Virus record (IMG/VR): IMGVR_UViG_3300017913_001710
Location: 1,219 to 65,218 of that record
From: a virus
Lineage: Duplodnaviria; Caudoviricetes
DNA: 64,000 bases
Direction: 5' to 3' (one strand)
The notes beneath the pieces are model-generated. The model worked only from the letters and a program-made list of their open reading frames with translations, was not told the origin of the DNA and made no database searches. Below, piece by piece: positions 1-62,273 of this stretch; position 1 is the first letter of the stretch; each line of letters opens with the position of its first letter. The position numbers and the translations under genes were made by a program.

Positions 1-549
1 GTATGGACCAGTAAGGAGTTGTTCGCTAAGAGAACTAACATGCAGGAATCAATGTTTATTAAGCTCAAGACAAATGTATCGTATGCATATGTCAACCTTA
101 AAAACAAAAACCTACTGTCTGTCCAGGTAAACGGACACGATAGGGAGTCAGGAGCGCTCAAAGGTCCTAAGTTCCCAGACATCTCAGACACAGAGCTAGA
201 CGAACAGGTTGCAGCTGCTAAGGAATTGTTTCCTGAAGCAAACGTATTCAAGCAACCTCACCTTATAGATCGTGTAGGACTTGTAGATGACTACATTAGT
301 TCATCGCCATTCATACAGCCAGACAAGAAAGTTGTTGGGTGCCTAGGAAAAAGAGATACCGAGTGGATACATGTTAACGCACACTCTGATCTATTCCTTT
401 GCTGTAACGATTATCATATGGAGTACAAGTATGGCAACCTAAAAGAAAACACACTACAAGAACTCTGGATGAGCGATAAGCACAACGAAGTGCTTCAAAA
501 AGCATGGGGGTCTATATGTAAAACTTGTACCTCAGCAGTGTATGAATAA
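1..549 (+). CDS. Radical SAM protein, C-terminal SPASM/twitch-like region (5'-truncated by window edge)
   Basis: Frame is open from base 1. LFLCCNDY...YGNLKENTLQELW...CKTC is typical of SPASM/twitch auxiliary Fe-S domains. The CxxxCxxC motif is not visible (presumably upstream). Confidence 0.65.
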   Translation, partial: VWTSKELFAKRTNMQESMFIKLKTNVSYAYVNLKNKNLLSVQVNGHDRESGALKGPKFPDISDTELDEQVAAAKELFPEANVFKQPHLIDRVGLVDDYISSSPFIQPDKKVVGCLGKRDTEWIHVNAHSDLFLCCNDYHMEYKYGNLKENTLQELWMSDKHNEVLQKAWGSICKTCTSAVYE

Positions 550-14300: not shown

Positions 14301-15361
14301 TAGAGCCTGGTCATGACGGTTCCGCTGGGTCTGCACAAGTAAGAGTATATGGTGGTTCAACTGAATATGTTCGCTTTGATGGATACAATAAAAGAGTAGG
14401 AATCGGGACGACTTCGCCTTCAAATAAATTACACGTTGTTGGTGGTGCTATTCACGTTAATTCAAGCGGTGATAAACAATTACGATTTTCGGGGACAAAT
14501 AAAAACACGTATTCATTTGAACACGATACGTCCCGTATTTACATTTACGATGAAACAAATGCGTCCGCTCGTTTCACGATTATGGATAGCGGAAATGTAG
14601 GAATAGGCACGACTTCGCCTTTAGTTAAACTAGATGTCAATGGCGACATACAGTCATATGGTACATCTCCAAGAATAGTTCTAAAAGAAACTGGAGCTAA
14701 TAAAGACTATAATTTAAGAGTATATAGCGGTGGGCGTTTAGCTTTTTTAAACGACAACACTACAACAGAAACAATGTCTTTGTTGCAGAACGGCAACTTA
14801 GGAATAGGCACAACTGCGCCTGGAGCAAAGCTTCATGTCTATGATGGAAATATTAGAATATCAAACAGCAATGGAACAAAAGACATAGCTCAGTACTACA
14901 ACACTATGACCTTTAAGGGTGATAGTAACTGTAAGTTTTACTTTGGAACATCTGAGAACCCATCATATAGCACGCCTCTTCCAGTTCACACTGGTAAGTT
15001 AGATGTAACTGGACATATATACGGGGGAGCCGCTGTACAAACAATAACAACAACTAGTGGAACGATAAACCTTGACGCTGAAGACTACGGTGTGTTTAGG
15101 TTAACAAGCTCACTTTCAGGAACGACTACACTTAACATTCAAAACATGAAGTCTGGTCAGGTTATAGATGTTATACTTACTGGAGATCAAACGGTAAACT
15201 TAACAAGTGATGATACCTCTGAGACTTTCTATAGAATAGGTGAAACAACTTATGATGGTACAGCAACTAATCACTTACAGATTGTTTGTATTAGCGACAC
15301 AGACTCAGCAGCAATATATCATTTCACTGTAGCAAAAATAGCAAGTAGTAGTTCAATATAA
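8312..15361 (+). CDS. Giant modular tail fibre (2349 aa) with about 17-19 GNVGIGTTSP-type repeats
   Basis: Recurrent G[N/D]VGIGTTSP..KL.V hinges separate variable beta-rich segments; GNDG.GSGLDAD and YGWGNHASAGY motifs each occur twice. Confidence 0.85.
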   Translation: MSELKILEDLKVHGDLKPTGAIHDSGDSPGTIGQILQSTATGTDWVDGIDISAGDAEAIHLAVKNTSGATITKGTPVYITGNVGNSDRLEVAPADASDASKMPAVGLLESDLANNAQGYVAQGGYLKGLATATIDGTSTSSNDTVYVKAGGGLTMTKPTGTNYIQNVAKVARVHASNGSLVVSSILRTNDVPTPLYIDHTNQRLGIGETSPGRRLHVKYSAQGVARFESTSSTNGFIDIKDANTTADNKVRFGAEADDLLLFAGGAERLRIDSSGYVGIGTTNPSVKLDVKDTLNSARPVKIGTTGNSYTAIDIYTNSIAAGNLYLIGYGSGNPQDGAFAIKNNSSHTTTNSTAGDIWFATGGSSTERLRIKGSSGNVGIGTNSPDAKLHINGGTGGDTAKVIVGGNDAIIKLGDNQGGGPHGLQFDGVSGVDGMSMYYRTTPQHIVFEDSTGTSGNSIMVIERGGNVGIGTTSPSYKLDVDGTARLQVATSADLTFEQGANQYQASINSSNHLVLQSAANNQVIFRSGGTTNMIVDGTSNNVGIGTTSPSSTLHVADTGNAEILIQRASGAGVLIQSQASVGVVGTNTNNRLDLKTNGGTRATISTDGNVGIGTTSPDTILHIESTSATGAILNLETTHSGGIPIYNMKGAHSAQLRYQDENGNNQTRIDFLDAGAMSFIDAANGNTRIAIKSSGNVGIGTGSPGQKLHVDGNIRVGDSADAIYSNKFYGLSNTSVYLQSNSGYPIIFNAGASEKMRITSSGNVGIGTTSPAVELEVDGHIMSDTHFRSSDTNATLSAQDGGNVFLRPNGYSNTSGQVVVKSTGNVGIGTDSPGATLQVGDGTVDENIRAYYNDNTFTELRGYGIQTNRGTAYFRPTVDNTQSLRIGYNYLQWQTLSFDATTTTFNVNGSEKLRINSSGDVGIGTTSPSEKLHVSGNTRLDGLVGINGPTSTDYQLNLQFDNTNPDDDFHFAQRIDGNFSGADNTTGDREQGGIYIDIDSSADGDSSNEHRLYGIFNDVRFTGFSDVVYAAFNRAESNNNTESTSVLAAAYNYAVHDSGSAGGVSNLYGSLNYGVVDDAGDVTNVVGSMGAALISSVRTANIGTLKGVVGEVQIDSPNAITYGNVSGVEAIIDNNEGSTPTGTNTFLFKGNYQGTRYATNAYGLYVQGNKHYLEGSVGINTTSPDANLHISGISQTGSLTPFKIENDTNNLKFSVRSVLGDYNLQFKNAANTVKVLLNSNGDSYLNGGNVGIGTTSPSTKLEVNGAITLTHNTFGEGLILNRDHASNASTITFKNNSGQAGILYATYADTTLRWRDGSSSNSYEIWHEGNDGSGSGLDADTVDGIQAASFLRSDASDSFSGILTGTNTGENLKVGGIRGTTKGSQTGQYIHLYERVHVGGPSGWGHSSHGAPSNGLSTWGSVDFGMNGTGVIQLDGTTIVNASRELINVTNTNWDTAYGWGNHASAGYITGISFADVSSKPAFITNSNLQSRATTAPNTAGDGTGASFHYLSSAATNKPAGTDHSLLTMAYSNDWQTQIAQDWRNKGRMYLRGQSSGTWSSWIRVHTTDDFSTTDVSNGATAYGWGNHASAGYLTDSSTQSKYLRSDADDTFTGNLTTGANNHITFGPNSTWGSSLRVGGNGHTATGTEMASVVTTDGNLHLDAAESTNATYLNYYAGTRGTIFGNGDAGIVARIDSSGNLYKASTATNITETYWHSGNDGSDSGLDADTLDGQHASSFLRSDQNDTTSGILGVNTTSLESGVSLTLGRTNGLPSIKADSSNGGYLILDSKSNFLSLNHYVNQDVVIGNGGGNVGIGTTSPSGGDYTSTAPKLHVKGADTAGSYTTVARFQAGNDSDNTGAAVLINHNNDRGLAIRAGRKDSDRAVAYFDLISSSGSATNMLTLGKYASDFRVGIGTTSPLQAFHTDGVAYFSGGTNVAFQSGGDVHASTAIVIDKGYRIKVRAGAYLRDLIHQDSSTSLIKVGQSGTSLITGINLEPGHDGSAGSAQVRVYGGSTEYVRFDGYNKRVGIGTTSPSNKLHVVGGAIHVNSSGDKQLRFSGTNKNTYSFEHDTSRIYIYDETNASARFTIMDSGNVGIGTTSPLVKLDVNGDIQSYGTSPRIVLKETGANKDYNLRVYSGGRLAFLNDNTTTETMSLLQNGNLGIGTTAPGAKLHVYDGNIRISNSNGTKDIAQYYNTMTFKGDSNCKFYFGTSENPSYSTPLPVHTGKLDVTGHIYGGAAVQTITTTSGTINLDAEDYGVFRLTSSLSGTTTLNIQNMKSGQVIDVILTGDQTVNLTSDDTSETFYRIGETTYDGTATNHLQIVCISDTDSAAIYHFTVAKIASSSSI

Positions 15362-18303
15362 TGAGTAACAGAAGAGTATTTATATCACCAACAACAGAAT
15401 CAACATCTCTACCAACTTCATTCAGCGCAAGATATTTAGTAGTTGCTGGAGGTGGATCAGGAAGTGGATATCACTACGGTGGTGGTGGAGGTGCTGGAGG
15501 TATGTTAGGCGGAAACGCTAACGATACCATAACACTAAGTGTTGGTGTTACGTACACCGCAATGATTGGAGGTGGTGGATCTAGTCCAAACACAAGTCAA
15601 GGAACTACTGGTAATGATGGATCTTCATCTTCTTTTTATGGATCGGGTATAACAACAATATCAACCACAGGTGGTGGTGGTGGTAACACACACTACAGCT
15701 CAACAGATGATGGTAGAGACGGTGGATCTGGTGGTGGTGGTGGATTAAACGCCAATGGTGGTTCTGGAGTTTCTGGTCAAGGTAATGATGGAGGTAGTTC
15801 TATAAATGTAGATGTAACGACAACCTATCCAAGAGCTGGAGGTGGTGGAGGTGGTGCAGGCGCTGCTGGAAGAAGCGGATGGACTGGTACTGCCGACTCA
15901 CTATTAGCAAATGGTGGTGATGGAAGAAGTTCAGATATAACGGGAACTAGCACATACTACGCAGGTGGTGGTGGTGGTGCACCAATTAATAGTTATGCTT
16001 ACGCTGGTGATAATGCCTATCGTGGTGGATTAGGTGGAGGAGGAGATGCTCAGATAAGTTGGGTATCAGGATACGGAATAGCCTCTGGATACAGCACTAG
16101 AATACAACAACCAGGAGACGTAAACACTGGCGGTGGTGGTGGTGGAAGAAACAACGGAAATCTTGGTAACAGAACTGGATCTAACGGTGGAGGATCTGGT
16201 GTAATAATATTAAGAGTGCCTAGTGGATACGGTATAAGTGGTACTTGTACAAGAACAGTAAATGAAGTAGGAAGTGATAAAGTTATAACGATAACTGGAT
16301 CAGGAACTATTTCATTTGTAAACTCTATTTTTCCTATTGATGTCGATTATCTTGTTATAGGTGGCGGTGGTGCTGGAAACCCTGGAGGTGGAGGTGGAGG
16401 TGCTGGAGGTTATAGAACTTCCTTTGGATCTGGCAACGTATCTGGTAGAAACTCTGCTGTAGAATCTCCGATATCTGTATCCGCTGGAACCGCATATACA
16501 GTAACAGTAGGTGGAGGTGGATCCACTATGAGTCCATCTAGTACAACCTCTGTATTGAATGCTGGAGGATCGGCAGGAAGTAATTCTGTTTTTTCTACGG
16601 TAACATCATTAGGTGGGGGTTGTGCATCATACTATCCCACTAGTGGCTACTTAGCTAAGAATGACGGAGGATCTGGTGGTGGAGCTGTATTCGGTGGAAG
16701 CGGTGGTCACAATGCAGGGGATACGTCTGGTACTACGGCACAAGGATTTGGAGGACACGGTGGAGGTTTGTCCAATGCATCTACATGGTCGGGAGGCGGT
16801 GGAGGCGCAGGTGCCGCTGGAAACAATACAGGCACAGGTGGGGCAGGATTGGCTTCATCAATAACAGGGACATCTGTTAACCGTGCAGGTGGAGGATCTC
16901 CTGGTCCTTGGCAGGGAGGAACAAGATCTTCAAACGGATTTGGTGGTGGTGCAGGAGGTAGCGCAACATCTGGAACTGCTAACACTGGTGGTGGAGGCGG
17001 TGGTGGAGGATCTACTAGTCAAAGTCAAAGTAACTTAAGAAATTCTGGATCGGGAGGATCTGGTGTTGTAATATTGAGGTTTGACTCAGAAGCTGATTAT
17101 ACTGTATCGGCAGGACTAACTTTTTCTGAAACGACAGACGGTGAATTTAAGGTTGTCACGTTCACATCAGGCACAGGTACAATAACCTTTAACGATCCAG
17201 TTGAAGAGCCAGATTATCCACACGAAGACTTAGTGTTATTTTTAAATGGCGCTACATATCCAGGATCAGGAACTACGTGGAATGATTTAAGCGACACAAA
17301 TGCTACAGCTACATTTAACTCAGCTCCTGCTCAAAGCACATACGGGTCTGCTCCAAACACATTAAACTTTTCAAGTAAGCTGGTCACAGTCACCAACAAC
17401 GCTGCTTTTGACTTTACATCAGAGCAGAGTGTTTACATTATAAGCTACCCTCTAAGTGATACCAATAGACAGAACTACTGGGATCAAGCCTATGGTGGTG
17501 AGGGTACTTGGACAAGAGAAGGAAATGGAACTATAAACTGTTTCTTTGGTGACAACGGAGGAAATGCACAACCATACATTGGCGCAAACTCTAGTACATC
17601 TGTAACGCTAAACCAATGGCAGAGTTGGTGCTTTACTAGAAACACTTCTACATGGCACTGGTATAAGAATGGTGTTCAAACAAGCACTGGTTCACATAGC
17701 TATAACACTCTTCCAAACGGAACGCAAAACATACGAATAGGATACGGGTATACTAGTCGGTACTTAAGCGCATACGTTATGTGTGTTTTAGCTTATACAA
17801 GAAAACTGACGTTGGCTGAGGTTAATGAGTTAGACGACTACTTTGAAGAGCAGTACGGCATTACATTGGGCGCAGCAAGTACGACGACTTCCACGTCTAC
17901 TACAGCCGCACCAACGACGACAACGTCGACAACTGCGTCTCCGACTACCACGACGGCAGCTCCGACTACTACGTCTACTTCGACAAGTACATCTACTTCG
18001 ACAAGTACATCTACTTCGACAAGTACGTCTACTTCTACATCTACTAGTACATCAACATCTACAAGTACGTCTACAAGTACATCAACTAGTACATCGACTA
18101 CTGCTGCTCCAGCTTGCTATCAATATGAATTTTTTGCAGACGGAGGGCAGACTGTTACCTTTACCTATCAGAGATGTAACAACGGTAATACGTTTACTGT
18201 TACAGTACCAAATGGCGATAGCGCAGGACCATTCTGTGCAAGAGAAAACTCAGTTTCAATGTCACCAAACAGTGGCACAGTAATAAAAGGATCATCATGT
18301 TAA
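15361..18303 (+). CDS. Virion decoration protein: two Gly-rich domains, LamG/ConA-like domain, (TS)n stalk, 4-Cys tip
   Basis: YLVVAGGG...GGGGAGG repeats; LVLFLNGATYPGSGTTWNDLS...WQSWCFTR LamG-like region; TS tract 17878-18102; terminal Cys module. Confidence 0.75.
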   Translation: MSNRRVFISPTTESTSLPTSFSARYLVVAGGGSGSGYHYGGGGGAGGMLGGNANDTITLSVGVTYTAMIGGGGSSPNTSQGTTGNDGSSSSFYGSGITTISTTGGGGGNTHYSSTDDGRDGGSGGGGGLNANGGSGVSGQGNDGGSSINVDVTTTYPRAGGGGGGAGAAGRSGWTGTADSLLANGGDGRSSDITGTSTYYAGGGGGAPINSYAYAGDNAYRGGLGGGGDAQISWVSGYGIASGYSTRIQQPGDVNTGGGGGGRNNGNLGNRTGSNGGGSGVIILRVPSGYGISGTCTRTVNEVGSDKVITITGSGTISFVNSIFPIDVDYLVIGGGGAGNPGGGGGGAGGYRTSFGSGNVSGRNSAVESPISVSAGTAYTVTVGGGGSTMSPSSTTSVLNAGGSAGSNSVFSTVTSLGGGCASYYPTSGYLAKNDGGSGGGAVFGGSGGHNAGDTSGTTAQGFGGHGGGLSNASTWSGGGGGAGAAGNNTGTGGAGLASSITGTSVNRAGGGSPGPWQGGTRSSNGFGGGAGGSATSGTANTGGGGGGGGSTSQSQSNLRNSGSGGSGVVILRFDSEADYTVSAGLTFSETTDGEFKVVTFTSGTGTITFNDPVEEPDYPHEDLVLFLNGATYPGSGTTWNDLSDTNATATFNSAPAQSTYGSAPNTLNFSSKLVTVTNNAAFDFTSEQSVYIISYPLSDTNRQNYWDQAYGGEGTWTREGNGTINCFFGDNGGNAQPYIGANSSTSVTLNQWQSWCFTRNTSTWHWYKNGVQTSTGSHSYNTLPNGTQNIRIGYGYTSRYLSAYVMCVLAYTRKLTLAEVNELDDYFEEQYGITLGAASTTTSTSTTAAPTTTTSTTASPTTTTAAPTTTSTSTSTSTSTSTSTSTSTSTSTSTSTSTSTSTSTSTSTSTSTTAAPACYQYEFFADGGQTVTFTYQRCNNGNTFTVTVPNGDSAGPFCARENSVSMSPNSGTVIKGSSC
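17878..18102 (+). repeat. Thr/Ser mucin-like tract (75 codons) including 18-bp tandem units
   Basis: TCTACTTCGACAAGTAC[A/G] occurs three times at about 17975-18028 within an (ST)n run. Confidence 0.9.
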
Positions 18304-29436: not shown

Positions 29437-30293
29437 TGGCAACACTAGAATCATATTACAACGACAGTTCCGAGTGGGGTAACTATCAGTACATCCTAAT
29501 GAAGGATGTCATAAATAATTTCATGGCATTTTATGTAGGAGATGGAAAAGTACTTGATAGCGTATCACGTTATGATGTAATCTTTCATGCAAAGCGTGGT
29601 CTTCAAGAGCTGCATTATGACGCATTAAGAGATATTATTGCATTAGAGCTAGATGTTCCTGATGATTTACAACTTGAACTACCACGGGACTTTGTAAGGC
29701 TAATACGTCTATCGTGGGTAGATAAGCAAGGAAGACAGCATGATATTCTTAATGACCATAAGTCTTCTATGCCAACAGCTTACCTACAAGATGACGATGC
29801 TAATATCATCTTTGACGATGATGGCAATCCCACTACAGGCACGTCAACTGTTGATGCAAATAGGTCTAACGTGAATCACAATGATGAGGTTGACGAATAC
29901 ACCAGCTTAGCAGATGAGTTTTTTGGTGGTCGCTTTGGTATGCAAACCAACAATGCTAACGTTAACGGTACTTACAACATAGACAAGAATCTTGGTATTA
30001 TCAGGTTTAGTTCTAACATCAAGGCGGAGACTGTTGTTATTGAATACATATCGGACGGACTTGAAAGCAAAGAAGAGTCAGAAATCCGAGTTAACAAACA
30101 AGTAGAAGATTTCCTATATAAATACATTGCCCATCAGATTATATCGCATAAATTTGGTGTACAAGAATACATTGTTAGAAGACTCAAGAATGATGCGTTT
30201 GCTGCATACAAGAATATGAAGATAAGAATGATGGAGATTCATCCAAACGATCTTGTGCAGGCATTGAAGGGTAGAAACAAGTGGATTAAGTAA
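29436..30293 (+). CDS. Tail ring/structural protein
   Basis: YQY..MKDVINNFM..YVG...HAKRGLQELHYD...IEYISDGL; TAATG coupling. Confidence 0.6.
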   Translation: MATLESYYNDSSEWGNYQYILMKDVINNFMAFYVGDGKVLDSVSRYDVIFHAKRGLQELHYDALRDIIALELDVPDDLQLELPRDFVRLIRLSWVDKQGRQHDILNDHKSSMPTAYLQDDDANIIFDDDGNPTTGTSTVDANRSNVNHNDEVDEYTSLADEFFGGRFGMQTNNANVNGTYNIDKNLGIIRFSSNIKAETVVIEYISDGLESKEESEIRVNKQVEDFLYKYIAHQIISHKFGVQEYIVRRLKNDAFAAYKNMKIRMMEIHPNDLVQALKGRNKWIK

Positions 30294-33200
30294 TGAAAGT
30301 TAAAAATGTTTTCGTTCAAGGGAAGATGAACAAGGATCTTGATGAGAGACTTGTACCCAAAGGACAGTATACAGACGCACAAAATGTACGCATATCAAAC
30401 TCAAACGGGTCTGATGTGGGTGCTGTTGAGAATGCTTTGTCTAATGAAGTGCTAACCAGTTTAAACTTCGGAGACACTCCAAGATGTATCGGCTCCTGTA
30501 CTAATTCCTCTGATCGTAAAATATACTGGTTTGTCGTCAGTAATGATGGGTCTTATATAGCTGAGTATGATGAAAAGAATGACGCAGCTACAATGATCCT
30601 GAAGGATGAACGACCAGGAACGTCAAACGTACTACAGTTTACGCCAGGTGATCTTATAGACTGCGATGTCCTTGTGGATGACGACAACGATAAGGTGTAT
30701 ATATATTTTACAAACGGAATATCTGCACCTAAAAAGATAGAGGTAGGTCATGCCAAGACACTTACAGCTTCAGAGTTTACTTTTGACGATGTTTCTGTTA
30801 TTGTTAAACCACCTATCAATCCACCAACCATAGCGCCAAAGACAACAGCAAACGACCTTGAGAAGAAAAATAACCTCAAGGAGAAGTTTGTAATGTTTGC
30901 CTATAGATATAAGTATCGTGACGATCAGTTTAGTGCTATATCTCCATTCAGCAACGTAGCGTTTCTTCCAGACTCGTATAAGTTCAACTTTGAGGATCAT
31001 GTGTTAGAATGCATGGTTAACATATACGATCAAGTAGATATCACATTCAATACGGGTGGAGTTAATGTGAAAGAAGTTGATGTTCTGTTTAAAGAATCAG
31101 GACAAAACACAATATACCTAGCTAAGAGTTTTAATAAGGAGGATGAATCTTTTGAGGATGATGAAGAGCAAACCTACACTTTTTCTAACAATCAGATATA
31201 CAAGGTGTTGTCTGAAAAGGAAATGTTTAGGCTGTATGACAATGTCCCTCTAACGGCAAAGACACAAGAGATAATTAATAACAGACTGGTGTATGGAAAC
31301 TACACCGAGAACTATGATCTTATCGATGCTGATGGTGATCAGGTGATTCCCGACTTAACTCTTACTTACAATCAAACTGTAAAGCAACAGAATGAAGCTT
31401 ACTCTTCTGTAAAAAGTAATAGAGATTATGAGATAGGCATAGTGTATCTAGACGAGCACGGTAGATCAACGACTGTGCTTAGTGGTGGTGATAACTCTAC
31501 ATACGTGAAGCCATATGCGTCTATTACGCAGAACGATCTATACGTTATGGTGAAACACCGTGCTCCTAAGTGGGCTAAGTTTTACCGTTTCTTTATTAAA
31601 GAAAGCGCAACAGATTACGATAACATATGCTCTAGTACCTTTCATGTTGATGCTGATGAAAAAGACATATATGTAAAGCTTGGAGGTGATGATATAAACA
31701 AAGTCAAAGAAGGAGATTTTGTAACCATGAAACGTGGTACGGATGGTGTATTAAGAGTGACGGAAGATCTCAACATTAAAGAGATAGAGAAAAAAGACAG
31801 AAACTTCCTTGACTATGATGACAGTGCCACAGACACGGAGCAAGAGCCTGGTTTGTACATGTCCCTAAAGCAACGAGGTTCCTTCCTTGTCCAAGACGAC
31901 AGTTTCGTTGAGTATAACTTAAAAGAAAATGTCACTGCTGATGGTGGTAAAGATGATCAATTCACGAACACTAGCGGTGTCAATTTAACTGAAGGACCTT
32001 TTTACTACGGATTTGACGAGGATTCAGATGATTGTAATCTCGTAAGTACAACATATCCACCAGACGGAGATTTCAGTGATCATTACAGAGTAGAAATAGA
32101 GATATCTACAAAAGGAACCACTGCTGATAAATTTAGAAAGAGAATTAAAGGCAGAGGTGAGGATGGTTACAATAATGAATGGAGTGATTGGTCTGATGAG
32201 ATCGATTGCAGCACATCCAATATAGACATAGGAATACACACAGACAACAGTAATAGTGGTACTTTACAAAAAATAGTCGTTAACTTTGATTCAGCTACTG
32301 GACACAGTGTAGGGGATAGATGGACGTTTAACTTTAAGCCAGCAGGTCAATGGATCGAAGGCGACTCAGCTCAGCCAGAAGATAGAGCTTACACTTGTAT
32401 AGAGTTTGAAAGTGGTGATGCCGAAAAAATACACGCTGGTTCATTTGCTAATATTACTGTTACATCATCCGAAGGTTCAGAAAGCTTCACAGCAGAATCA
32501 GACACTGTATACGCATCACGTGATTACGAAAACTTTGAGGAGTTTTATTATGAAGAAAGAATATATGAACAGTTAGCAAAAACAAAAGCCTTTAATGAGG
32601 AGATGATATCTTTCAGGAGAGGAACGCAGCAAGCTAACAAGCCTGACTCACACAAAACCTTTACGTCTAGCACTTCAGATCCATTGATCTTAGTTTTTGA
32701 AAGTCCATACTATTACAACAACTGGTTCAACAGGAATTTTGAGAAAGTAAAAGGTACTGTAGCCATAGAGTTAAACGTAACCGAAGGGCAGAGCCATACG
32801 TTTTTAGCTGAAACAAAATCTAAGATTAAAAACAGTGATGTATATTACGAGATAGGAAAGACTTATGAGTTGTCAAATATAGGGTACCATAAAGGCGATC
32901 CAAACAGTAATGACATTGATCAGGCTTTTGATACTAACGCATTCATAAAGTTAGACTTCTTTAACTGCTTTGCTTGGGCTAATGGTCACGAATCTATAAA
33001 GATCAAAGACTCCTTCTTTGGGACGAAGTATACATATGACACAAGACCATTGACTAGTATAGAGAAGTATCAAGAGAATGAAAGAAGATCTTCGTTAACA
33101 TACTCAAACGTATACGATCAGACTACGAACTATAATGGACTGAACGAGTTTAACTTATCTACTGTCAATTATAAAGACTTAGATGACGCAGATGGCGACA

Positions 33201-34312
33201 TTCAAAACATAATGTCAAGAGACACTAACCTAGTTGTGTTTCAAGAGAACAAAATATCTCAGATATTATACAATAAAAACGTGTTATTTAGCGCAACTGG
33301 CGCTGGTGATGTAGCCCAGACCACAGAGATACTTGGTCAACAAATACCTTTTCTAGGTGAGTACGGTGTAACAACTTCTCCTCATACAGTAACAAGATGG
33401 GGTGGTAGAATATATGCTGCTGATCCTAGACGAGGATGTGTTTTAAGGATATCACAAGATGGTATTACTGAAATATCACAGTATGGTATGCGTGATTGGT
33501 TCAGAGACAACATGAGCCCTACTAATGGCAACTATCTAATAGGCGGCTATGATCCAATAAACGGGCAGTATGTACTATCTATACAGAACCCTGTAGAAGA
33601 GTGGAGGGAAGACTCTACTTCATGTGAGCTGTTTACATGGAAGGTTGACACATATGATTGTGAAGACTTACCATTTGAGTGTAGCGATGCTGGATTTACT
33701 ATGTCCGACGGGATAACAGGATCATCTACTAGTGGTCAAGGTAGTGTAACAGCAGGAACGATTACATCTATATCACCATCTACATATACAACAGGTTCAG
33801 CTACCTATACTGCAACCATTACAATACCAGATGGTTGGTCTAACAGTGGTGAGTCTATTGAGTGTACAGCAACAGCTACTGGATCTGCAACAACAACAAG
33901 CACCTCTACAAGTACATCAACAACATCTGCACCGACTACATCGACAACATCTGCACCGACTACATCTACCAGCACATCAACGAGTACTTCTACCAGCACA
34001 TCAACGAGTACTTCTACTAGCACATCAACGTCTTCAACGAGTACGTCAACGAGTACGTCAACTAGCACTTCAACAAGTACGTCTACAAGTACTTCAACAA
34101 GTACAAGTACAACGGCAGCGCCAGTGTGTTACGATTACGAAGTATCTGCAGACGGAGGGGAAACTGTTACGTTCTACTACGAAAGATGTAACACAGGTGC
34201 TACGCAGTCGGTTACAGTGCCTAACGGTGATAGTGCTCAGATATGTGCGAGACAAGGTAGTGTGTATGGGGCGCCAAATAGTGGAACAATAACAGCACTA
34301 GGTCTTTGTTAA
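30293..34312 (+). CDS. Tail stabilisation/muzzle protein (N-terminal part) extended by a beta domain, (TS)n stalk and 4-Cys tip
   Basis: GKMNKDLDERLVP.GQY.DAQN start; D.DGDIQ...LVVFQENKI...GEYG...GGYDP pattern of crAss/P22-gp10-like nozzle proteins; TS tract 33890-34114. Confidence 0.7.
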   Translation: MKVKNVFVQGKMNKDLDERLVPKGQYTDAQNVRISNSNGSDVGAVENALSNEVLTSLNFGDTPRCIGSCTNSSDRKIYWFVVSNDGSYIAEYDEKNDAATMILKDERPGTSNVLQFTPGDLIDCDVLVDDDNDKVYIYFTNGISAPKKIEVGHAKTLTASEFTFDDVSVIVKPPINPPTIAPKTTANDLEKKNNLKEKFVMFAYRYKYRDDQFSAISPFSNVAFLPDSYKFNFEDHVLECMVNIYDQVDITFNTGGVNVKEVDVLFKESGQNTIYLAKSFNKEDESFEDDEEQTYTFSNNQIYKVLSEKEMFRLYDNVPLTAKTQEIINNRLVYGNYTENYDLIDADGDQVIPDLTLTYNQTVKQQNEAYSSVKSNRDYEIGIVYLDEHGRSTTVLSGGDNSTYVKPYASITQNDLYVMVKHRAPKWAKFYRFFIKESATDYDNICSSTFHVDADEKDIYVKLGGDDINKVKEGDFVTMKRGTDGVLRVTEDLNIKEIEKKDRNFLDYDDSATDTEQEPGLYMSLKQRGSFLVQDDSFVEYNLKENVTADGGKDDQFTNTSGVNLTEGPFYYGFDEDSDDCNLVSTTYPPDGDFSDHYRVEIEISTKGTTADKFRKRIKGRGEDGYNNEWSDWSDEIDCSTSNIDIGIHTDNSNSGTLQKIVVNFDSATGHSVGDRWTFNFKPAGQWIEGDSAQPEDRAYTCIEFESGDAEKIHAGSFANITVTSSEGSESFTAESDTVYASRDYENFEEFYYEERIYEQLAKTKAFNEEMISFRRGTQQANKPDSHKTFTSSTSDPLILVFESPYYYNNWFNRNFEKVKGTVAIELNVTEGQSHTFLAETKSKIKNSDVYYEIGKTYELSNIGYHKGDPNSNDIDQAFDTNAFIKLDFFNCFAWANGHESIKIKDSFFGTKYTYDTRPLTSIEKYQENERRSSLTYSNVYDQTTNYNGLNEFNLSTVNYKDLDDADGDIQNIMSRDTNLVVFQENKISQILYNKNVLFSATGAGDVAQTTEILGQQIPFLGEYGVTTSPHTVTRWGGRIYAADPRRGCVLRISQDGITEISQYGMRDWFRDNMSPTNGNYLIGGYDPINGQYVLSIQNPVEEWREDSTSCELFTWKVDTYDCEDLPFECSDAGFTMSDGITGSSTSGQGSVTAGTITSISPSTYTTGSATYTATITIPDGWSNSGESIECTATATGSATTTSTSTSTSTTSAPTTSTTSAPTTSTSTSTSTSTSTSTSTSTSTSTSSTSTSTSTSTSTSTSTSTSTSTSTSTTAAPVCYDYEVSADGGETVTFYYERCNTGATQSVTVPNGDSAQICARQGSVYGAPNSGTITALGLC
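33890..34114 (+). repeat. Thr/Ser mucin-like tract (75 codons) including 24-bp tandem units
   Basis: TCTACCAGCACATCAACGAGTACT occurs twice at about 33965-34012; ACAACATCTGCACCGACTACATC also occurs twice. Confidence 0.9.
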
Positions 34313-34356
34313 AATATTTAGATAAAGCCTTATATATTAAGTTAAATAAAGTATAA

Positions 34357-35256
34357 ATGAAATACATTTGCGCACAGCCAGCAAACCAATATTTTGGATG
34401 GCAACTAGATGTGATGCTTCACAGCTTCATAACGACTGGGGTAAAGCCTAGTGAGATAGATGTTATATCTTCTACTATAGAAGGCATAGACGATTACTTC
34501 ACTACTCTTATGCAGAAATATACGGGTGTTAACTTTTCCTTCTATGAAGACACTAGGGAGTTTAAAGGATACATACCATCCATAAAGCAACACTTACTAG
34601 CTAAGCACTTAAGAGCAAACCCAGAGCTACAACACTGTCCAATAATGCTACATGATGCTGATATTGCACTAACAAGACCAATCAAGCTAGACAACCTCCT
34701 AAAAGATAACATATGGTATTTTAGCGACACTATATCATACCTGAATCATAGCTACATATTATCTAAAGGAAGAGACGTATTAGAGAAGATGCTTGAGATT
34801 GCTGAAATATCAGAGGACATAGTGAGGTCAAACAACAATAACGCAGGGGGTGCACAATACCTAATGAAGAACGTTACCCCAGAGTTAATGGATGAGGTTG
34901 TGGAAATGTCTCATAAGTTATGGATAGAGATGAGTGCGGTAAATGAAGCTAAAGATTATGGCGATGATTACCCGTTACAGATATGGACAGCGGAGATGTG
35001 GGCAATGCTTTGGGTGCCTTGGAAGAAGGGGATAATGACAGCAGTTGCAAAGGACCTAGACTTTTGCTGGGCTACTGATCCTAAAGAGAAGTGGCATAGC
35101 GTGTCTATATATCACAACGCAGGGGTGACTGAGCCGTCTGATATAATGTTTCACAAGGGAACATATATTCATCAAATGCCAGACCTTAATCTAAACCTCA
35201 AGGCAGAGCGTTGCTCTTACCACTACTACAACCTTCTTAAAAGTGCACTAGGTTAA
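34357..35256 (+). CDS. GT-A glycosyltransferase resembling plant peptidyl-Ser O-galactosyl/Hyp O-arabinosyltransferases (GT96/GT95)
   Basis: NQYFGWQLDVMLHSF, YIPSIK, IMLHDAD (DxD) and WTAEMWAM correspond in order to recalled SERGT1/HPAT motifs (NYFDWQ..GLMHSF, YP.INKP, ILDAD, WI.EMYGY). Confidence 0.65.
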   Translation: MKYICAQPANQYFGWQLDVMLHSFITTGVKPSEIDVISSTIEGIDDYFTTLMQKYTGVNFSFYEDTREFKGYIPSIKQHLLAKHLRANPELQHCPIMLHDADIALTRPIKLDNLLKDNIWYFSDTISYLNHSYILSKGRDVLEKMLEIAEISEDIVRSNNNNAGGAQYLMKNVTPELMDEVVEMSHKLWIEMSAVNEAKDYGDDYPLQIWTAEMWAMLWVPWKKGIMTAVAKDLDFCWATDPKEKWHSVSIYHNAGVTEPSDIMFHKGTYIHQMPDLNLNLKAERCSYHYYNLLKSALG

Positions 35257-35262
35257 ATTTAG

Positions 35263-35270
35263 TATCTTTG
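35263..35270 (+). promoter_or_regulatory. Bacteroidota-type -7 element (TATCTTTG)
   Basis: TAnnTTTG 14 nt before ORF 35285. Confidence 0.55.
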
Positions 35271-35284
35271 CACAAAGATGTTTC

Positions 35285-37033
35285 ATGCTTAGAACAGGAG
35301 TAAAAATCATAACGACTTTACGTAAATACGTTAATGGTGTCAAGACAGACGAGACCAAAACTAACGTGGTTACAGATCAAGACTACATAAAGAAGTATTA
35401 TGATACGTCTCAATGTAAGGTCAGGGAAGAAGATGAAGATGACACCACAACGGCTGCTCCTGAGTCAACAACAACAACTGCACCTTCAACGACATCTACA
35501 ACTACTGTAAATGAAGGGCTGTGTAGTGCAACCGCTGATGGCTTCGTTGCGGCAGGTACATCTCAGTGGAACATATCATTTACTACTGATTTATTCCCAA
35601 GCGCTGGAGATGTCATAACATTCACAAGTGGAAACTTTGTTGTCATATACGAAGCAGAAGAGGTGAGTCAAGGAAACTGGACTATTACTACAGATCCAAT
35701 GCCTGAAACTATAACCGACAACACTTCATTTAATATAGATTGTAGTAACGAAGTGACACCGCCAACTACAAGTACTTCCACTAGCACATCAACAAGCACC
35801 TCCACTAGCACATCAACGAGTACCTCCACCTCAACAACATCATCACCTACACCTACTACGTCAACCAGCACAAGTACTTCAACGACTAATGCTCCTACAA
35901 CAACGACAACGACTAATGCTCCTACAACAACGACAACTACAGAAGCACCATGCGTAGTGGGAGATGAGATATCTTCGAGTACTAATATGATAGGCAACCT
36001 GGAACAGGTAGATGTTAATAACTCTCACCCTACGGCAGATCCTGGTGTGGCATTAGGTACTGGTTTAGGATTGAATATTGGATCATTCGTAAACACAAAC
36101 AAAAGCTTCGCTTCATCTTCATCATTAGGAGAATATAACATTGCAACAGTTGTCATTACTAACTGGAGTCAAGCAGAAAATAATTCTGGTAGTGCATTTG
36201 ATTTTGAGTCATGGGTTGAAACAAATCTTTTGAATGGAGGAACACTTTCAAACAGTTATCAAAATATAGTTGACTTTGATGGTAATGAGGTGGATGTCAT
36301 ATTAGGTTACGGTGCAAGTGCATTTACTTCTTACTATATAAGAATCAAAGTGGGATCTGTTAGAATGCAGGGGTCTGGAGGAAGATATGATCACATGATT
36401 TTCGCTGCACGAGATGGATCTATGTTTACTTCTAGTGATTATGTCGATGGAGCAAACAATTACGTTACAGGACACAACAATACAGGAGACTTAAGGTTCT
36501 GGGAGTTGTGCACCAACGGAGGAAACTTCGATGCACCTTCTACAACTTCCACCAGTACATCGACCTCAACAAGTACCTCAACGACTTCAACGAGTACATC
36601 AACCAGTACCAGTACATCAACCAGTACCAGTACATCAACTAGTACTAGTACATCAACCAGTACTAGTACATCAACAAGTACAACAGCAGCTCCTGCAGCA
36701 TCTTGGAAGACTATAACGCTTTCAACTCAGTACTCGGTTACCACTAGCGAAACCCTCACTTCAACCCATGAAAATGATTATTGCCCTGGAGATTGGACTT
36801 CAGCTAACTATTCTGGAAACTACGCCTTCTACGGAACTGGAAACTTCCCTGCGGTTGGTGACACTATAGCATATACGTACAATGGTAATCCTATCAGTAA
36901 TGCCAACACTCAATCATCTCACATGGTGAGAAGAGTTTACAGCTCTACCGAAGGACAGGGACCAGTTGTATTGATAGAAAACGGTCAGGGAGTAAATGCA
37001 GGAGTTGTTTTAGATGTTCATTACTGTACATAA
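35285..37033 (+). CDS. Virion decoration protein with three Thr/Ser-rich linkers
   Basis: TS tracts at 35444-35506, 35765-35941 and 36539-36685 separate small Cys-flanked domains; N-terminus homologous to ORF 37043. Confidence 0.7.
   Translation: MLRTGVKIITTLRKYVNGVKTDETKTNVVTDQDYIKKYYDTSQCKVREEDEDDTTTAAPESTTTTAPSTTSTTTVNEGLCSATADGFVAAGTSQWNISFTTDLFPSAGDVITFTSGNFVVIYEAEEVSQGNWTITTDPMPETITDNTSFNIDCSNEVTPPTTSTSTSTSTSTSTSTSTSTSTSTTSSPTPTTSTSTSTSTTNAPTTTTTTNAPTTTTTTEAPCVVGDEISSSTNMIGNLEQVDVNNSHPTADPGVALGTGLGLNIGSFVNTNKSFASSSSLGEYNIATVVITNWSQAENNSGSAFDFESWVETNLLNGGTLSNSYQNIVDFDGNEVDVILGYGASAFTSYYIRIKVGSVRMQGSGGRYDHMIFAARDGSMFTSSDYVDGANNYVTGHNNTGDLRFWELCTNGGNFDAPSTTSTSTSTSTSTSTTSTSTSTSTSTSTSTSTSTSTSTSTSTSTSTSTTAAPAASWKTITLSTQYSVTTSETLTSTHENDYCPGDWTSANYSGNYAFYGTGNFPAVGDTIAYTYNGNPISNANTQSSHMVRRVYSSTEGQGPVVLIENGQGVNAGVVLDVHYCT
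35765..35941 (+). repeat. Thr/Ser tract with 27-bp tandem duplication
   Basis: AACGACTAATGCTCCTACAACAACGAC occurs twice at 35881-35934. Confidence 0.85.
36539..36685 (+). repeat. Thr/Ser tract
   Basis: (ST)n run with ACCAGTAC/ACATCAAC units. Confidence 0.85.
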
Positions 37034-37042
37034 AAAATAGAT

Positions 37043-37834
37043 ATGGCACAAAGCGGATATAAGAAGATATTGACAATTAGAAAGTATGTAGACAATGTAG
37101 CTACAGACTTCACTAAGACAAACGTTGTGGATACAGAGGATTATTTTAAGCCTCAGTATAACCTAGATGATTGTGCGTCCGATGATCCCCGTGCTATTAC
37201 AACTACAACTAGTACATCTACAAGTACATCTACAACAACATCAGCACAACAGGCTGTGGGGAACATTGCTGCTATAGCAATAACAGGAGGCAAGGTGACT
37301 GATCCAGCAAGTGCTTTACTTACTAGGTTGTCTACAAACGTAGTGTATGTGAAAGCAAAAGAAGTGGGAGCGACTATGTACACTCTTGTAGATTCAGGCA
37401 ACTATCCGAATGCGATTAGAAGAAATAAGCTTGTGATAGACAATAGTAGCATACAGAATCTATACATGCTACAGAAAAACATTTCAGGGTATATATACAG
37501 CGACACAGAGGGGATTATAAGAGACAACTCTATATTATCTACAAGTAGCACAATATCACCTACTGATCAAAACGCTAAAGGAAACTATTTGGTTAGTGCT
37601 GTCAGTCTTTTAGATCCAGGAGAGTATAATGCATCATTAAGCAAATATCTAGCAAGACATGCCCCTTATTTGACTTTATCTTGGGACTCATCTGAAGGTA
37701 GATTAAAGTTTAAGATAAATTATGTAGAGCTGTATTCTACTGGGTCCACTGTTCAAGGTGATGTTTTAGGTGGAGATCAGTCAACTAACGATAGCCTATT
37801 TGGAGGTGATGGTAAAGTAGAAGAAGTAGTATAA
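37043..37834 (+). CDS. Virion decoration protein with a short TS linker
   Basis: N-terminal G.K.I.T.RKYV...TKTNVV...DY...Y....C module, then TS tract 37199-37243. Confidence 0.65.
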   Translation: MAQSGYKKILTIRKYVDNVATDFTKTNVVDTEDYFKPQYNLDDCASDDPRAITTTTSTSTSTSTTTSAQQAVGNIAAIAITGGKVTDPASALLTRLSTNVVYVKAKEVGATMYTLVDSGNYPNAIRRNKLVIDNSSIQNLYMLQKNISGYIYSDTEGIIRDNSILSTSSTISPTDQNAKGNYLVSAVSLLDPGEYNASLSKYLARHAPYLTLSWDSSEGRLKFKINYVELYSTGSTVQGDVLGGDQSTNDSLFGGDGKVEEVV

Positions 37835-37835
37835 C

Positions 37836-38591
37836 ATGGCACAACACACACTAACATTTGATGAAAAAGTAAGCGGATGGACTTCGTTCCATACTTACTA
37901 CCCAGAGTACATGGTTGAAATGAACAATCAGTTCTACACTTTTAAAGATGGTCAATTATACAAACATAACGTAGACTCTGGAGATCGAAATACTTTCTAC
38001 GGTGAAGCTGGAAGTTCTAGCATAGAGTTTGTTGTAAACGATAGTCCATCTGATGTTAAGAACCTGAGAGCGTTATCTCTTGAGTCAAACAATAAGACTT
38101 GGAGTGCTACCATAGAGACCGACATAGAAAAAGGACACATAGACAAAAGCTCTTTTGAAAATAAAGAAGGTATAAACTATGCATACATAAGACGAAATGC
38201 AGACGCTGATGTAGACACCACTTTACTTTCTGTACAAGGAGTTGGTGTATTAGATGCTATATCGGAAAACGTACTAACGTTTGATAACGTGCCTGGAACC
38301 GTAAGTGTAAGTGATGGAATCCCTCAGATGGGTGATATTCTGTATTTCATTAATAATCTTGGAGAGCAGAAAAAGATTGGTAGAATCGAAAGTAAAACTA
38401 GCGTAAGTATTACAGTCGAGTCACAAGAAAACACCCCCTCACTCAATGACTTTTGTTTCGCTGTTAAGAACAGCATAGCTGAAAGCTTTAGTCTTAAAGG
38501 ATACTTTGCCAAAGTAAAGCTAACAAGTGAATCGACTGACCCATGCGAACTCTTCGCTGTCAACACCGAGCTTGATAAAAGCTTCCCTTAA
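37836..38591 (+). CDS. Tail stabilisation/muzzle protein, C-terminal part (separate gene)
   Basis: TLTFDEKVSGWTSFHTYYPEYM..MNNQFYTFKDGQLYKHN...LKGYFAKVKL...ELFAV resembles the C-terminal blades of tail tubular-B/muzzle proteins. Confidence 0.6.
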   Translation: MAQHTLTFDEKVSGWTSFHTYYPEYMVEMNNQFYTFKDGQLYKHNVDSGDRNTFYGEAGSSSIEFVVNDSPSDVKNLRALSLESNNKTWSATIETDIEKGHIDKSSFENKEGINYAYIRRNADADVDTTLLSVQGVGVLDAISENVLTFDNVPGTVSVSDGIPQMGDILYFINNLGEQKKIGRIESKTSVSITVESQENTPSLNDFCFAVKNSIAESFSLKGYFAKVKLTSESTDPCELFAVNTELDKSFP

Positions 38592-61331: not shown

Positions 61332-62273
61332 TTACCCTAGGATGTAGGCACTAGCTTTGGTAGCTTGTTGCATTGCGAAGAAGCATTGCTTTGGCTTGTC
61401 CTTGAATCGCTTGACCCATCCTTTGATGTAGGCGATGCTGTTCTGTTCTGTATCCTTCGGATTCAGTCCCACAAAGCCTTCTAGATACATAGAACTAATC
61501 TCTGCGACTAGTTCCTCTTGTGCATAGGTGTCATCCCCCCACTTGTTGACGTCTAGAAGTGTACTTCTATTCAGTCTAGACTCGTGACCAGTTGAGTGTG
61601 CCAGTTCGTGGAAGAGTGTCTTGTAGTAGCTGTCGCTGTCTACGAACGTCTCAATCTTTGGCATGTTCACTACGTCATCACTTGGTCTGTAGTAGGCTTG
61701 GTCTACCTTATGCACTAGCTTGAGGTTTCCGTCTCTGTCGATGTACGACTGGACGAGGTTCTCAGCTACTTCAATCGGTTGGTTATCGTTGCCGTTGTCC
61801 TCGATTTCTTCGAGTGGCTCAATGCCTTCCGTTTGCCCTATATTAAACACCTTGTAGTACATCCATGTGAATGTCTCACGGTATCGGGCAATCTCCTCTC
61901 CTTTGTCGTTTGTAATCGTCTCGTTGAGGTTGACTTCTTTGATTTCTGCAGGTTTCAAGTACTTGCCAGTCTTCATGTCCTGATAGCCTATTTTCATTAG
62001 GTAGACATCAGTTGATTTACTGCCTTTTATGATTGTTCCTCCAAGGCTTTTTACTTGCTTGAAGGTCAACCATTGGTTGTACTGGAATCCGTTTGACATC
62101 ATCTCGAAGTTCAGGAAGAAGACGTTGAAACCGTTGTAGTAACGTCCCGTGACACGGTTGCGAGGTGCATTCGCTTGTCCTGATTTCCATGGCTTAAACC
62201 ACTTCATCCCTTTCTTGCTGATTCCCTCGATAACTGCATCGTTCACCTTTTTGATAATTGCATCTTGATTCAT
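61332..62273 (-). CDS. ardC: ArdC-like antirestriction/ssDNA-binding protein with zincin domain
   Basis: KPW...PRNRVTGRYYNGFN...QWLTFKQ...GG.IIKG N-domain; YYRPSDDVVNMP...YYKTLFHELAHSTGH..RL.R...YAQEELVAE C-domain. Confidence 0.85.
   Translation of the reverse strand: MNQDAIIKKVNDAVIEGISKKGMKWFKPWKSGQANAPRNRVTGRYYNGFNVFFLNFEMMSNGFQYNQWLTFKQVKSLGGTIIKGSKSTDVYLMKIGYQDMKTGKYLKPAEIKEVNLNETITNDKGEEIARYRETFTWMYYKVFNIGQTEGIEPLEEIEDNGNDNQPIEVAENLVQSYIDRDGNLKLVHKVDQAYYRPSDDVVNMPKIETFVDSDSYYKTLFHELAHSTGHESRLNRSTLLDVNKWGDDTYAQEELVAEISSMYLEGFVGLNPKDTEQNSIAYIKGWVKRFKDKPKQCFFAMQQATKASAYILG

Follow-up and report, generated by a model that had tools for sequence, protein, structure and literature searches.

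The genome of a small marine crAss-like phage (65 kb) encodes a glycosyltransferase, termed GT1 here, in the midst of tail genes whose products carry long tracts of Thr and Ser, and we consider it probable that the phage glycosylates these tracts in its own virion proteins. The DNA analyzed (the window; 64,000 nucleotides) represents bases 1219–65218 of the complete 65,218-bp virus record IMGVR_UViG_3300017913_001710, which has direct terminal repeats, and is nearly the whole phage genome. A reading made from the sequence alone had flagged the open reading frame (ORF) at 34357–35256 as a glycosyltransferase (GT) that could build a mucin-like glycan coat on neighboring virion stalks. This claim was followed up by profile searches, structure prediction and comparison of loci across phages.

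GT1 and the Thr/Ser tracts

The ORF is present and contains the motifs on which the sequence-only reading was based (NQYFGWQLDVMLHSF, YIPSIK, MLHDAD, and WTAEMW). GT1 was assigned to phrog_4417, a PHROG family listed with function unknown, with an expect value (E) of 1.4e-68 (residues 1–296 on profile positions 1–290 of 293). Searches of Pfam (E ≤ 1), NCBIfam, and PDB sequences gave no match, and none was obtained with the CAZy GT8 model (Pfam PF01501, Glyco_transf_8), which GT1 resembles by fold only. The phrog_4417 family is uncharacterized, and full-text literature searches found no paper on it or on poly-Thr/Ser tags on the virions of non-actinobacterial phages. It is nonetheless represented by 965 clusters (at 50% identity) among 1.84 billion representatives.

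An AlphaFold2 (AF2) model of GT1 was built from 42 homologs and had a predicted local distance difference test score (pLDDT) of 96.6 and a predicted template modeling score (pTM) of 0.92. In an exhaustive structural comparison, 122 chains reached Z ≥ 8 and the top 21 rows were all GT-A transferases (Z 10.8–15.4). The best folds were AgtA, the Skp1 alpha-galactosyltransferase (Z 15.4), glycogenin (15.2 and 14.9), LgtC (14.9), WbbM (14.7), and the catalytic domain of UGGT (14.6); pneumococcal GlyE followed at 13.9. The rows from AgtA to UGGT differ by less than one Z unit and are effectively tied. Foldseek concurred, assigning the GT-A fold with a probability of 1.00. The model places H-D100-A-D102, a DxD motif, directly after a strand (residues 96–99), and D100, D102, Q167, H253, and K267 are invariant in the 42 homologs (47–92% identity). 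The GT-A fold predicted for this ORF was therefore recovered, with Z scores of 13.6–15.4 to GT-A enzymes and an invariant DxD, and from the model we are confident that GT1 is a GT-A fold nucleotide-sugar glycosyltransferase. No hydrophobic or membrane segment and no signal peptide were detected in GT1, and the protein is therefore predicted to be cytoplasmic.

The nearest folds are all retaining enzymes from families GT8, GT24, and GT77. Glycogenin, LgtC, UGGT, Dictyostelium AgtA, and GlyE share the fold of the whole protein with GT1 (206–239 aligned residues, Z 13.9–15.4), as well as the DxD at the end of a β-strand and an invariant C-terminal His, although sequence identity is only 7–13%. 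These retaining neighbors, and only they, suggest an alpha linkage for the added sugar. Some of the nearest folds act on proteins or glycoproteins, namely glycogenin, AgtA (on Skp1), UGGT, and GlyE (from the serine-rich-repeat pathway). The rank of glycogenin among the top matches (Z 14.9–15.2) could also be taken to mean that GT1 glycosylates itself as a primer, in the manner of glycogenin, or synthesizes a polysaccharide, with a product that is not on virion proteins. We regard this as very improbable because it leaves unexplained both the co-occurrence with Thr/Ser tracts and the fusions to radical S-adenosylmethionine (radical-SAM) enzymes of a peptide-modifying type, which are described below.

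The sequence-only reading had further linked GT1 to two plant enzymes, the hydroxyproline (Hyp) arabinosyltransferases (HPAT; GT95) and the peptidyl-serine alpha-galactosyltransferase SERGT1 (GT96). Two of the 42 family members touched the HPAT profile (PF23452) below its cut-off of 23.9 bits, with a best E of 3e-4, and HPAT was found on 10% of the members of one nearby Atlas cluster. GT1 itself gave no match at E ≤ 1, and the profile matched neither the genome of this phage nor any of 10 phage records with family members (0/10). What stands from the proposed relationship is a faint sequence signal for a distant kinship between the family and HPAT, and what falls is a match by GT1 itself. Glycan initiation on extended peptides rich in Ser and Hyp, as performed by HPAT (of plants and algae) and SERGT1, follows the logic proposed for GT1, but the plant enzymes are Golgi membrane proteins whereas GT1 is predicted to be soluble.

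All six Thr/Ser tracts in the original list proved genuine; they are encoded on the + strand, in frame, in four long ORFs (Table 1). When a strict tract was defined as at least 11 Ser or Thr in 12 residues, these proteins contained six merged strict tracts, whereas 200 residue shuffles of their sequences gave 0.005 on average and never more than 1, and chance was rejected as their origin on this basis. Within the tracts, Thr is encoded by ACT, ACA, ACG, and ACC, and Ser by both TCN and AGY codons, and the DNA repeats are imperfect (64–94% match). From the mixed codons and imperfect repeats, we conclude that selection maintains the tracts as peptide and that they are not simple microsatellites or slippery DNA.

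As had been claimed, GT1 is located among virion genes. The muzzle protein is encoded in two pieces, with Pfam domains crAss_MUZ and crAss_MUZ_C on either side of the GT cassette, as in a Crassvirales tail muzzle module, and the gene order is kept in 80 relatives. The two pieces enclose three + strand genes with gaps of 1–44 bases, encoding GT1 (299 aa), a 582-aa protein, and a 263-aa protein. The N-terminal muzzle piece ends in a Thr/Ser stalk followed by a four-cysteine tip domain. The 582-aa and 263-aa proteins begin with 45-residue modules (35285–35420 and 37043–37175) that are 52% identical to each other. This module is joined to the MUZ_C piece through a short ordinary linker in GT-less relatives, and it recurs at 35–38% identity in the tract-bearing GT neighbors of Chryseobacterium phage MA9V-3. 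A tail-docking function is probable for this module and, for that reason, the 582-aa and 263-aa proteins are likely to be virion components. Several proteins of the muzzle variable region begin with the module, and positions for it outside this genome are L084:17077–18024 and L001:6606–8995.

The fourth tract-bearing protein (980 aa) is encoded in the fibre block and its tract is 16 kb distant from GT1. It ends in a tip domain 62% identical to that of the otherwise unrelated muzzle protein (64–65 residues), and in each case the tip is situated behind the longest tract of the protein. No convincing structural relative of the tip domain was identified (best Z 4.7, to Ena1C; Foldseek E ≥ 0.28), and lectins and carbohydrate-binding modules appeared only as weak rows in its structure comparison. 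In other GT-bearing loci, the tip domain is found behind poly-Thr or Pro/Thr/Ala linkers. Some GT-bearing relatives encode tail proteins (L028:9262–9963 and L026:11459–11908) with a beads-on-a-string arrangement, in which very long linkers of Pro, Thr, Ala, and Val and additional small domains containing Cys come after a tip-like domain.

Co-occurrence of the glycosyltransferase and the tracts

The correlation on which the sequence-only reading depended is present, both in crAss-like relatives and in unrelated phages. In a set of 80 muzzle-centered loci, every GT-bearing locus (4/4) had several tracts, whereas 72 of the 76 GT-less loci had none, three had a single minimal tract, and in the remaining one the tracts lay where a short contig breaks off (Fisher p = 4e-5, for loci that are not all independent). 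The last of these (L092:7254–8183) is the sole GT-less muzzle locus with several strict tracts, at most 1.2 kb from the contig end; given this location, a GT may sit just beyond the assembled sequence. The closest relatives of the 980-aa fibre protein (60–62% identity in the lectin domain) are found in two GT-less genomes, estimated as 89% and 100% complete, and these relatives end right after the lectin domain. The Thr/Ser-coding pattern had no matches in the two GT-less genomes, compared to 57 in this genome.

When 80 loci centered on the GT were examined, strict tracts were present in 36. The nearest tract was within 2 kb of the GT in 33 of these 36 loci (24% would be expected), and all tracts (113/113) were on the same strand as the GT. 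The loci without strict tracts mostly had shorter Thr runs in a large gene just upstream. Poly-Thr/Ser tails or linkers adjoin the GT in seven isolated phages (phiFL1A, nattely, RQ1, phiCTP1, R3.3, Iacchus, and Chryseobacterium phage MA9V-3), which belong to distant, unrelated lineages, mostly with Gram-positive hosts. The tract carriers are capsid-like, major-tail, or adjacent proteins; examples are gp45 (capsid-like) and gp50 (major tail protein) in Enterococcus phage phiFL1A; one capsid-position and one tail-tube-position protein in Lacticaseibacillus phage R3.3; gp11 and gp18 in Clostridium phage phiCTP1; and the annotated major tail protein in Staphylococcus phage RQ1. The tract proteins of the isolated phages are non-homologous to each other and to those in the window. 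In RQ1, the poly-Thr end of the major tail protein (L164:7229–7931) overlaps the next ORF, which is almost pure poly-Thr/Ser; this could reflect a programmed frameshift, or an annotation split, yielding a longer tagged form.

The reverse test used 80 arbitrary viral stretches with the Thr/Ser-coding pattern, a sample that includes giant-virus contigs and truncated loci. The GT was found in eight of them, always adjacent to the tract and on the same strand. In these sequence comparisons, gain and loss of the GT go hand in hand with gain and loss of Thr/Ser stalks, in phages that differ widely from one another.

An association of this kind could arise by hitch-hiking in a mobile cassette, with the tracts serving as unmodified flexible linkers and GT1 acting on a host envelope glycan (for superinfection exclusion or serotype conversion) or on a small molecule. 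There is precedent in the well-known phage GTs that modify host surface glycans (reviewed in PMC12619734), and GT1 does sit in a variable tail-module region with gene gain and loss. However, the proteins that bear tracts (muzzle, fibre, capsid-like, and tail-tube) are not homologous to one another, and the tract 16 kb away from GT1 is missing from the relatives in GT-less genomes. Furthermore, GT1 lacks a membrane segment or signal peptide, and its genes are found in late structural operons and not in lysogeny or moron regions. We therefore judge this explanation quite unlikely.

A proposed route to glycosylated stalks

The genome encodes two further enzymes that may act in the same pathway. 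GT2, a second GT-A enzyme, overlaps the start of a gene for a radical-SAM/SPASM enzyme. An Atlas model of GT2 matched GT8, Nucleotid_trans, and Mannosyl_trans3 clusters (template modeling score 0.67–0.73), and hhalign detected no relation between GT2 and GT1. The radical-SAM/SPASM protein is about 41% identical (39–43%, over its full length) to a module that 15 proteins of other phages carry in fusion with the GT1 domain, and its gene is found in two of the four near-complete GT-bearing relatives (77–78% identity) and is absent from both GT-less genomes. Presence of the radical-SAM gene was also considered as a marker for the four-cysteine tip domain, but the two do not track strictly; one genome (G012) has the radical-SAM gene without the tip and another (G013) has the tip without the radical-SAM gene. 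About half of the best representatives of the GT1 family exceed 450 residues. Fusion partners of the GT1 domain among longer relatives are other GT domains (GT6, GT2, GT32-type, GT11, GT7C, and GT1), an FkbM methyltransferase, or a radical-SAM and SPASM module. The fusions suggest that these enzymes serve one pathway that builds a multi-sugar or modified glycan. Because peptides are the typical substrates of SPASM-type radical-SAM enzymes, the radical-SAM/SPASM enzyme would fit a protein substrate here, and it is proposed to be an accessory enzyme of the GT1 pathway. The fusion of such an enzyme to a GT points to chemistry that is undescribed for glycoproteins.

In the model we propose, GT1 is a soluble, metal-dependent enzyme expressed late in infection along with the tail genes. 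It would draw on a nucleotide sugar of the host and, while in the host cytoplasm, glycosylate the Thr/Ser tracts at their hydroxyl groups, placing the first sugar before or during virion assembly. The acceptors would be the muzzle protein, the two modular proteins docked on the muzzle, and the lectin-bearing fibre protein. GT2 (GT8-like) and the radical-SAM/SPASM enzyme may then extend or modify the glycan or the tract. The outcome would be an extended, mucin-like stalk that resists proteases and holds small terminal domains away from the tail. Stiffening, protease resistance, and adhesion, as put forward in the sequence-only reading, would be possible benefits. The acceptor, timing, sugar, and benefit to the phage are all parts that we infer.

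An alternative with the roles swapped would still yield glycosylated virions; GT2 or a host enzyme would place the first sugar and GT1 would extend the glycan. A second GT-A enzyme is available in the genome, and several of the nearest folds (LgtC, XXYLT1, AgtA, LARGE1, and UGGT) extend existing glycans. Nevertheless, it is GT1 that accompanies the tracts in each lineage, and many small phages, such as phiFL1A and R3.3, have GT1 alone beside tagged proteins in the stretches examined. Together with the lack of a GT2 homolog in the GT1-bearing relatives searched, these observations make the alternative unlikely.

Several points count against glycosylation of the tracts by GT1 and its proposed partners. 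Related loci inflate the number of independent events in the co-occurrence counts. About half of the GT-centered loci have no strict tract but only short Thr runs, and 90% of the arbitrary Thr/Ser-tract loci have no GT within the stretch. Likeness of a predicted fold does not identify the acceptor. Several of the nearest enzymes act on glycans and not on peptides, so GT1 could extend a sugar instead of adding the first. As for the accessory enzymes, the radical-SAM gene is missing from two of the four near-complete GT-bearing relatives, and searches at BLAST level revealed no homolog of GT2, either in five relatives or among the fusion partners of GT1.

In a broader interpretation, which we consider slightly more likely than not, phrog_4417 would be the initiating enzyme of a widespread and portable "glyco-tag" system. 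Any virion protein gaining a poly-Thr/Ser tail or linker would be O-glycosylated in the cytoplasm, and variety in the product would come from optional extension GTs (fused or separate) and from a radical-SAM/SPASM enzyme that modifies the glycan or the tagged peptide in a new way. Such a system would extend across phages of Bacillota and Bacteroidota, crAss-like phages among them, and would be independent of the system in actinophages.

To our knowledge, glycosylation of phage particles has been established experimentally only in mycobacteriophages and is regarded as rare elsewhere. The work of Freeman et al. in 2023 (Cell Host Microbe 31:1216) reportedly concerned mycobacteriophages Che8, Corndog, and Myrna, with glycans reportedly shielding the virions from antibodies. 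As relayed in three later papers, phage-encoded GTs glycosylate mycobacteriophage capsid and tail-tube proteins (Freeman 2023, via PMC12619734, PMC13313380, and PMC12582341). The system in this genome shares with the Che8 type the principle that cytoplasmic phage GTs are proposed to O-glycosylate the structural proteins of the phage itself. The two are unlike in the family of the enzymes, the design of the acceptors, the arrangement of the genes, and the phyla of the hosts. The Che8 enzymes (gp108–110) are of Glycos_transf_2/Glyco_transf_25 (GT2/GT25) type and unrelated to GT1, and hmmsearch with the GT1 family profile gave no match to them (E ≥ 0.5). The capsid and tail-tube proteins of Che8 end in a short "...GS" and have no poly-Thr/Ser tract. 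Tags in the Gram-positive GT1 carriers are placed as in Che8, at the C termini of capsid-like and tail-tube proteins, while the tracts in the window form internal stalks in tail proteins. The Che8 GT genes are located at the far right end of the genome, distant from their substrates, whereas GT1 is beside its proposed acceptors. The hosts are Bacteroidota-type and Bacillota here, versus Actinomycetota for the mycobacteriophages.

A further parallel is provided by microbial glycoside hydrolases, in which O-glycosylated Pro/Thr/Ser linkers join catalytic domains to carbohydrate-binding modules. The proteins in the window have a comparable arrangement of a globular domain, a long linker of hydroxy amino acids, and a small terminal β domain, and some relatives have PT- or PA-type linkers ahead of the four-cysteine tip domain. 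The linkers in glycoside hydrolases are glycosylated during secretion; by contrast, phage proteins are cytoplasmic until lysis, and a cytoplasmic enzyme encoded by the phage would therefore be needed.

Genomic setting and implications

The positions of the cassette and associated features are given in Table 1.

Table 1. Features of the phage genome discussed in the text (window positions unless stated otherwise)
Feature	Position	Strand	Description and evidence
GT1, soluble GT-A glycosyltransferase (299 aa), phrog_4417	34357..35256	+	PHROG profile; AF2 fold; DxD D100/D102
Muzzle protein, N part (1339 aa)	30293..34312	+	Pfam crAss_MUZ (PF25731), E 1.8e-9; phrog_14478, E 2e-230
Muzzle C-terminal piece (251 aa)	37836..38591	+	Pfam crAss_MUZ_C (PF25729), E 2.8e-13, plus last 36 positions of crAss_MUZ
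582-aa modular protein	35285..37033	+	N-terminal docking module (~45 aa; probable), then three globular domains with Thr/Ser tracts between
263-aa protein	37043..37834	+	Docking module as in 582-aa protein (probable); Thr/Ser tract; 195-aa domain
980-aa fibre-block protein	15361..18303	+	Gly-rich domain, ConA-like lectin domain, Thr/Ser stalk, four-Cys tip; Pfam Gly_rich_2, Laminin_G_3
Four-cysteine β tip domain (64 aa)	34118..34312	+	In muzzle protein, held by stalk; AF2 pLDDT 94.3; six strands
Four-cysteine tip domain	18106–18303	+	End of 980-aa fibre protein
Thr/Ser tract	17878–18105 (purest from 17965)	+	In ORF 15361–18303
Thr/Ser tract (~75 residues), proposed acceptor	33890–34117	+	In muzzle protein, ORF 30293–34312
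Looser Thr-rich stretch (TTTAAPESTTTTAPSTTSTTT)	35444–35506	+	In ORF 35285–37033
Thr/Ser tracts	35765–35941 and 36539–36688	+	In ORF 35285–37033
Thr/Ser tract	37199–37246	+	In ORF 37043–37834
Radical-SAM/SPASM enzyme (307 aa)	Genome 844–1767; C-terminal part at window 1..549	+	Pfam SPASM, Radical_SAM
GT2, second GT-A enzyme (280 aa)	Genome 17–859, outside window		DAD motif; overlaps start of radical-SAM/SPASM gene
Terminase	20564		
Portal	22845		

Comparison of the layout across the 80 relatives identified the C-terminal muzzle piece as the far border of the variable region that contains the GT cassette. The region between the two muzzle pieces ranges from 0 to 7 kb in relatives, with or without a GT, and the crAss_MUZ and MUZ_C matches are contiguous in some (loci L134, L147, L150, and L123). 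Because the region varies regardless of the GT and can be contiguous, the split in the muzzle is a general hot spot that was not made by the GT cassette. A scan for promoters and terminators across 29–42 kb of the window found no + strand terminator and no excess of promoters, and lends weak support to co-transcription of the cassette.

The replication arm is carried on the minus strand, and a search of it for base-modification genes revealed neither a hydroxymethylase nor a TET-like dioxygenase nor a DNA methyltransferase. This bears on the idea that GT1 glycosylates hydroxymethylated bases in the phage DNA as a defense against restriction, for which the diversity of phage GTs involved in DNA hypermodification offers a precedent (bioRxiv 10.1101/2023.12.21.572611). 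The gene for GT1 is in the tail module and the link to Thr/Ser tracts would go unexplained, so a role in DNA glycosylation is highly improbable.

Two other genes were observed elsewhere in the genome. A GroEL-like chaperonin gene (window 594–2189; phrog_5725, E 4e-138) comes directly after the GT2/radical-SAM pair, and the minus strand at window 61332–62273 encodes an anti-restriction protein that resembles ArdC and includes a zincin metallopeptidase domain (Pfam ArdcN and MPTase-PolyVal).

Several of the phages that carry the GT beside tract proteins are culturable (phiFL1A, R3.3, phiCTP1, RQ1, Iacchus, and MA9V-3), which puts the glycosylation of their virions within direct experimental reach. 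If the proposal is correct, a short encoded tag and one soluble enzyme would be of use in biotechnology for O-glycosylation in the cytoplasm, and the interpretation of cryo-electron microscopy data would be affected because flexible glycosylated stalks are invisible in maps. There would be consequences for phage therapy, through immune recognition and clearance, and for the ecology of dairy and gut phages, through adhesion to mucus or polysaccharides. Phages that infect lactic acid bacteria, enterococci, staphylococci, or clostridia would then commonly have glycosylated virions, as would the crAss-like phages of Bacteroidota.

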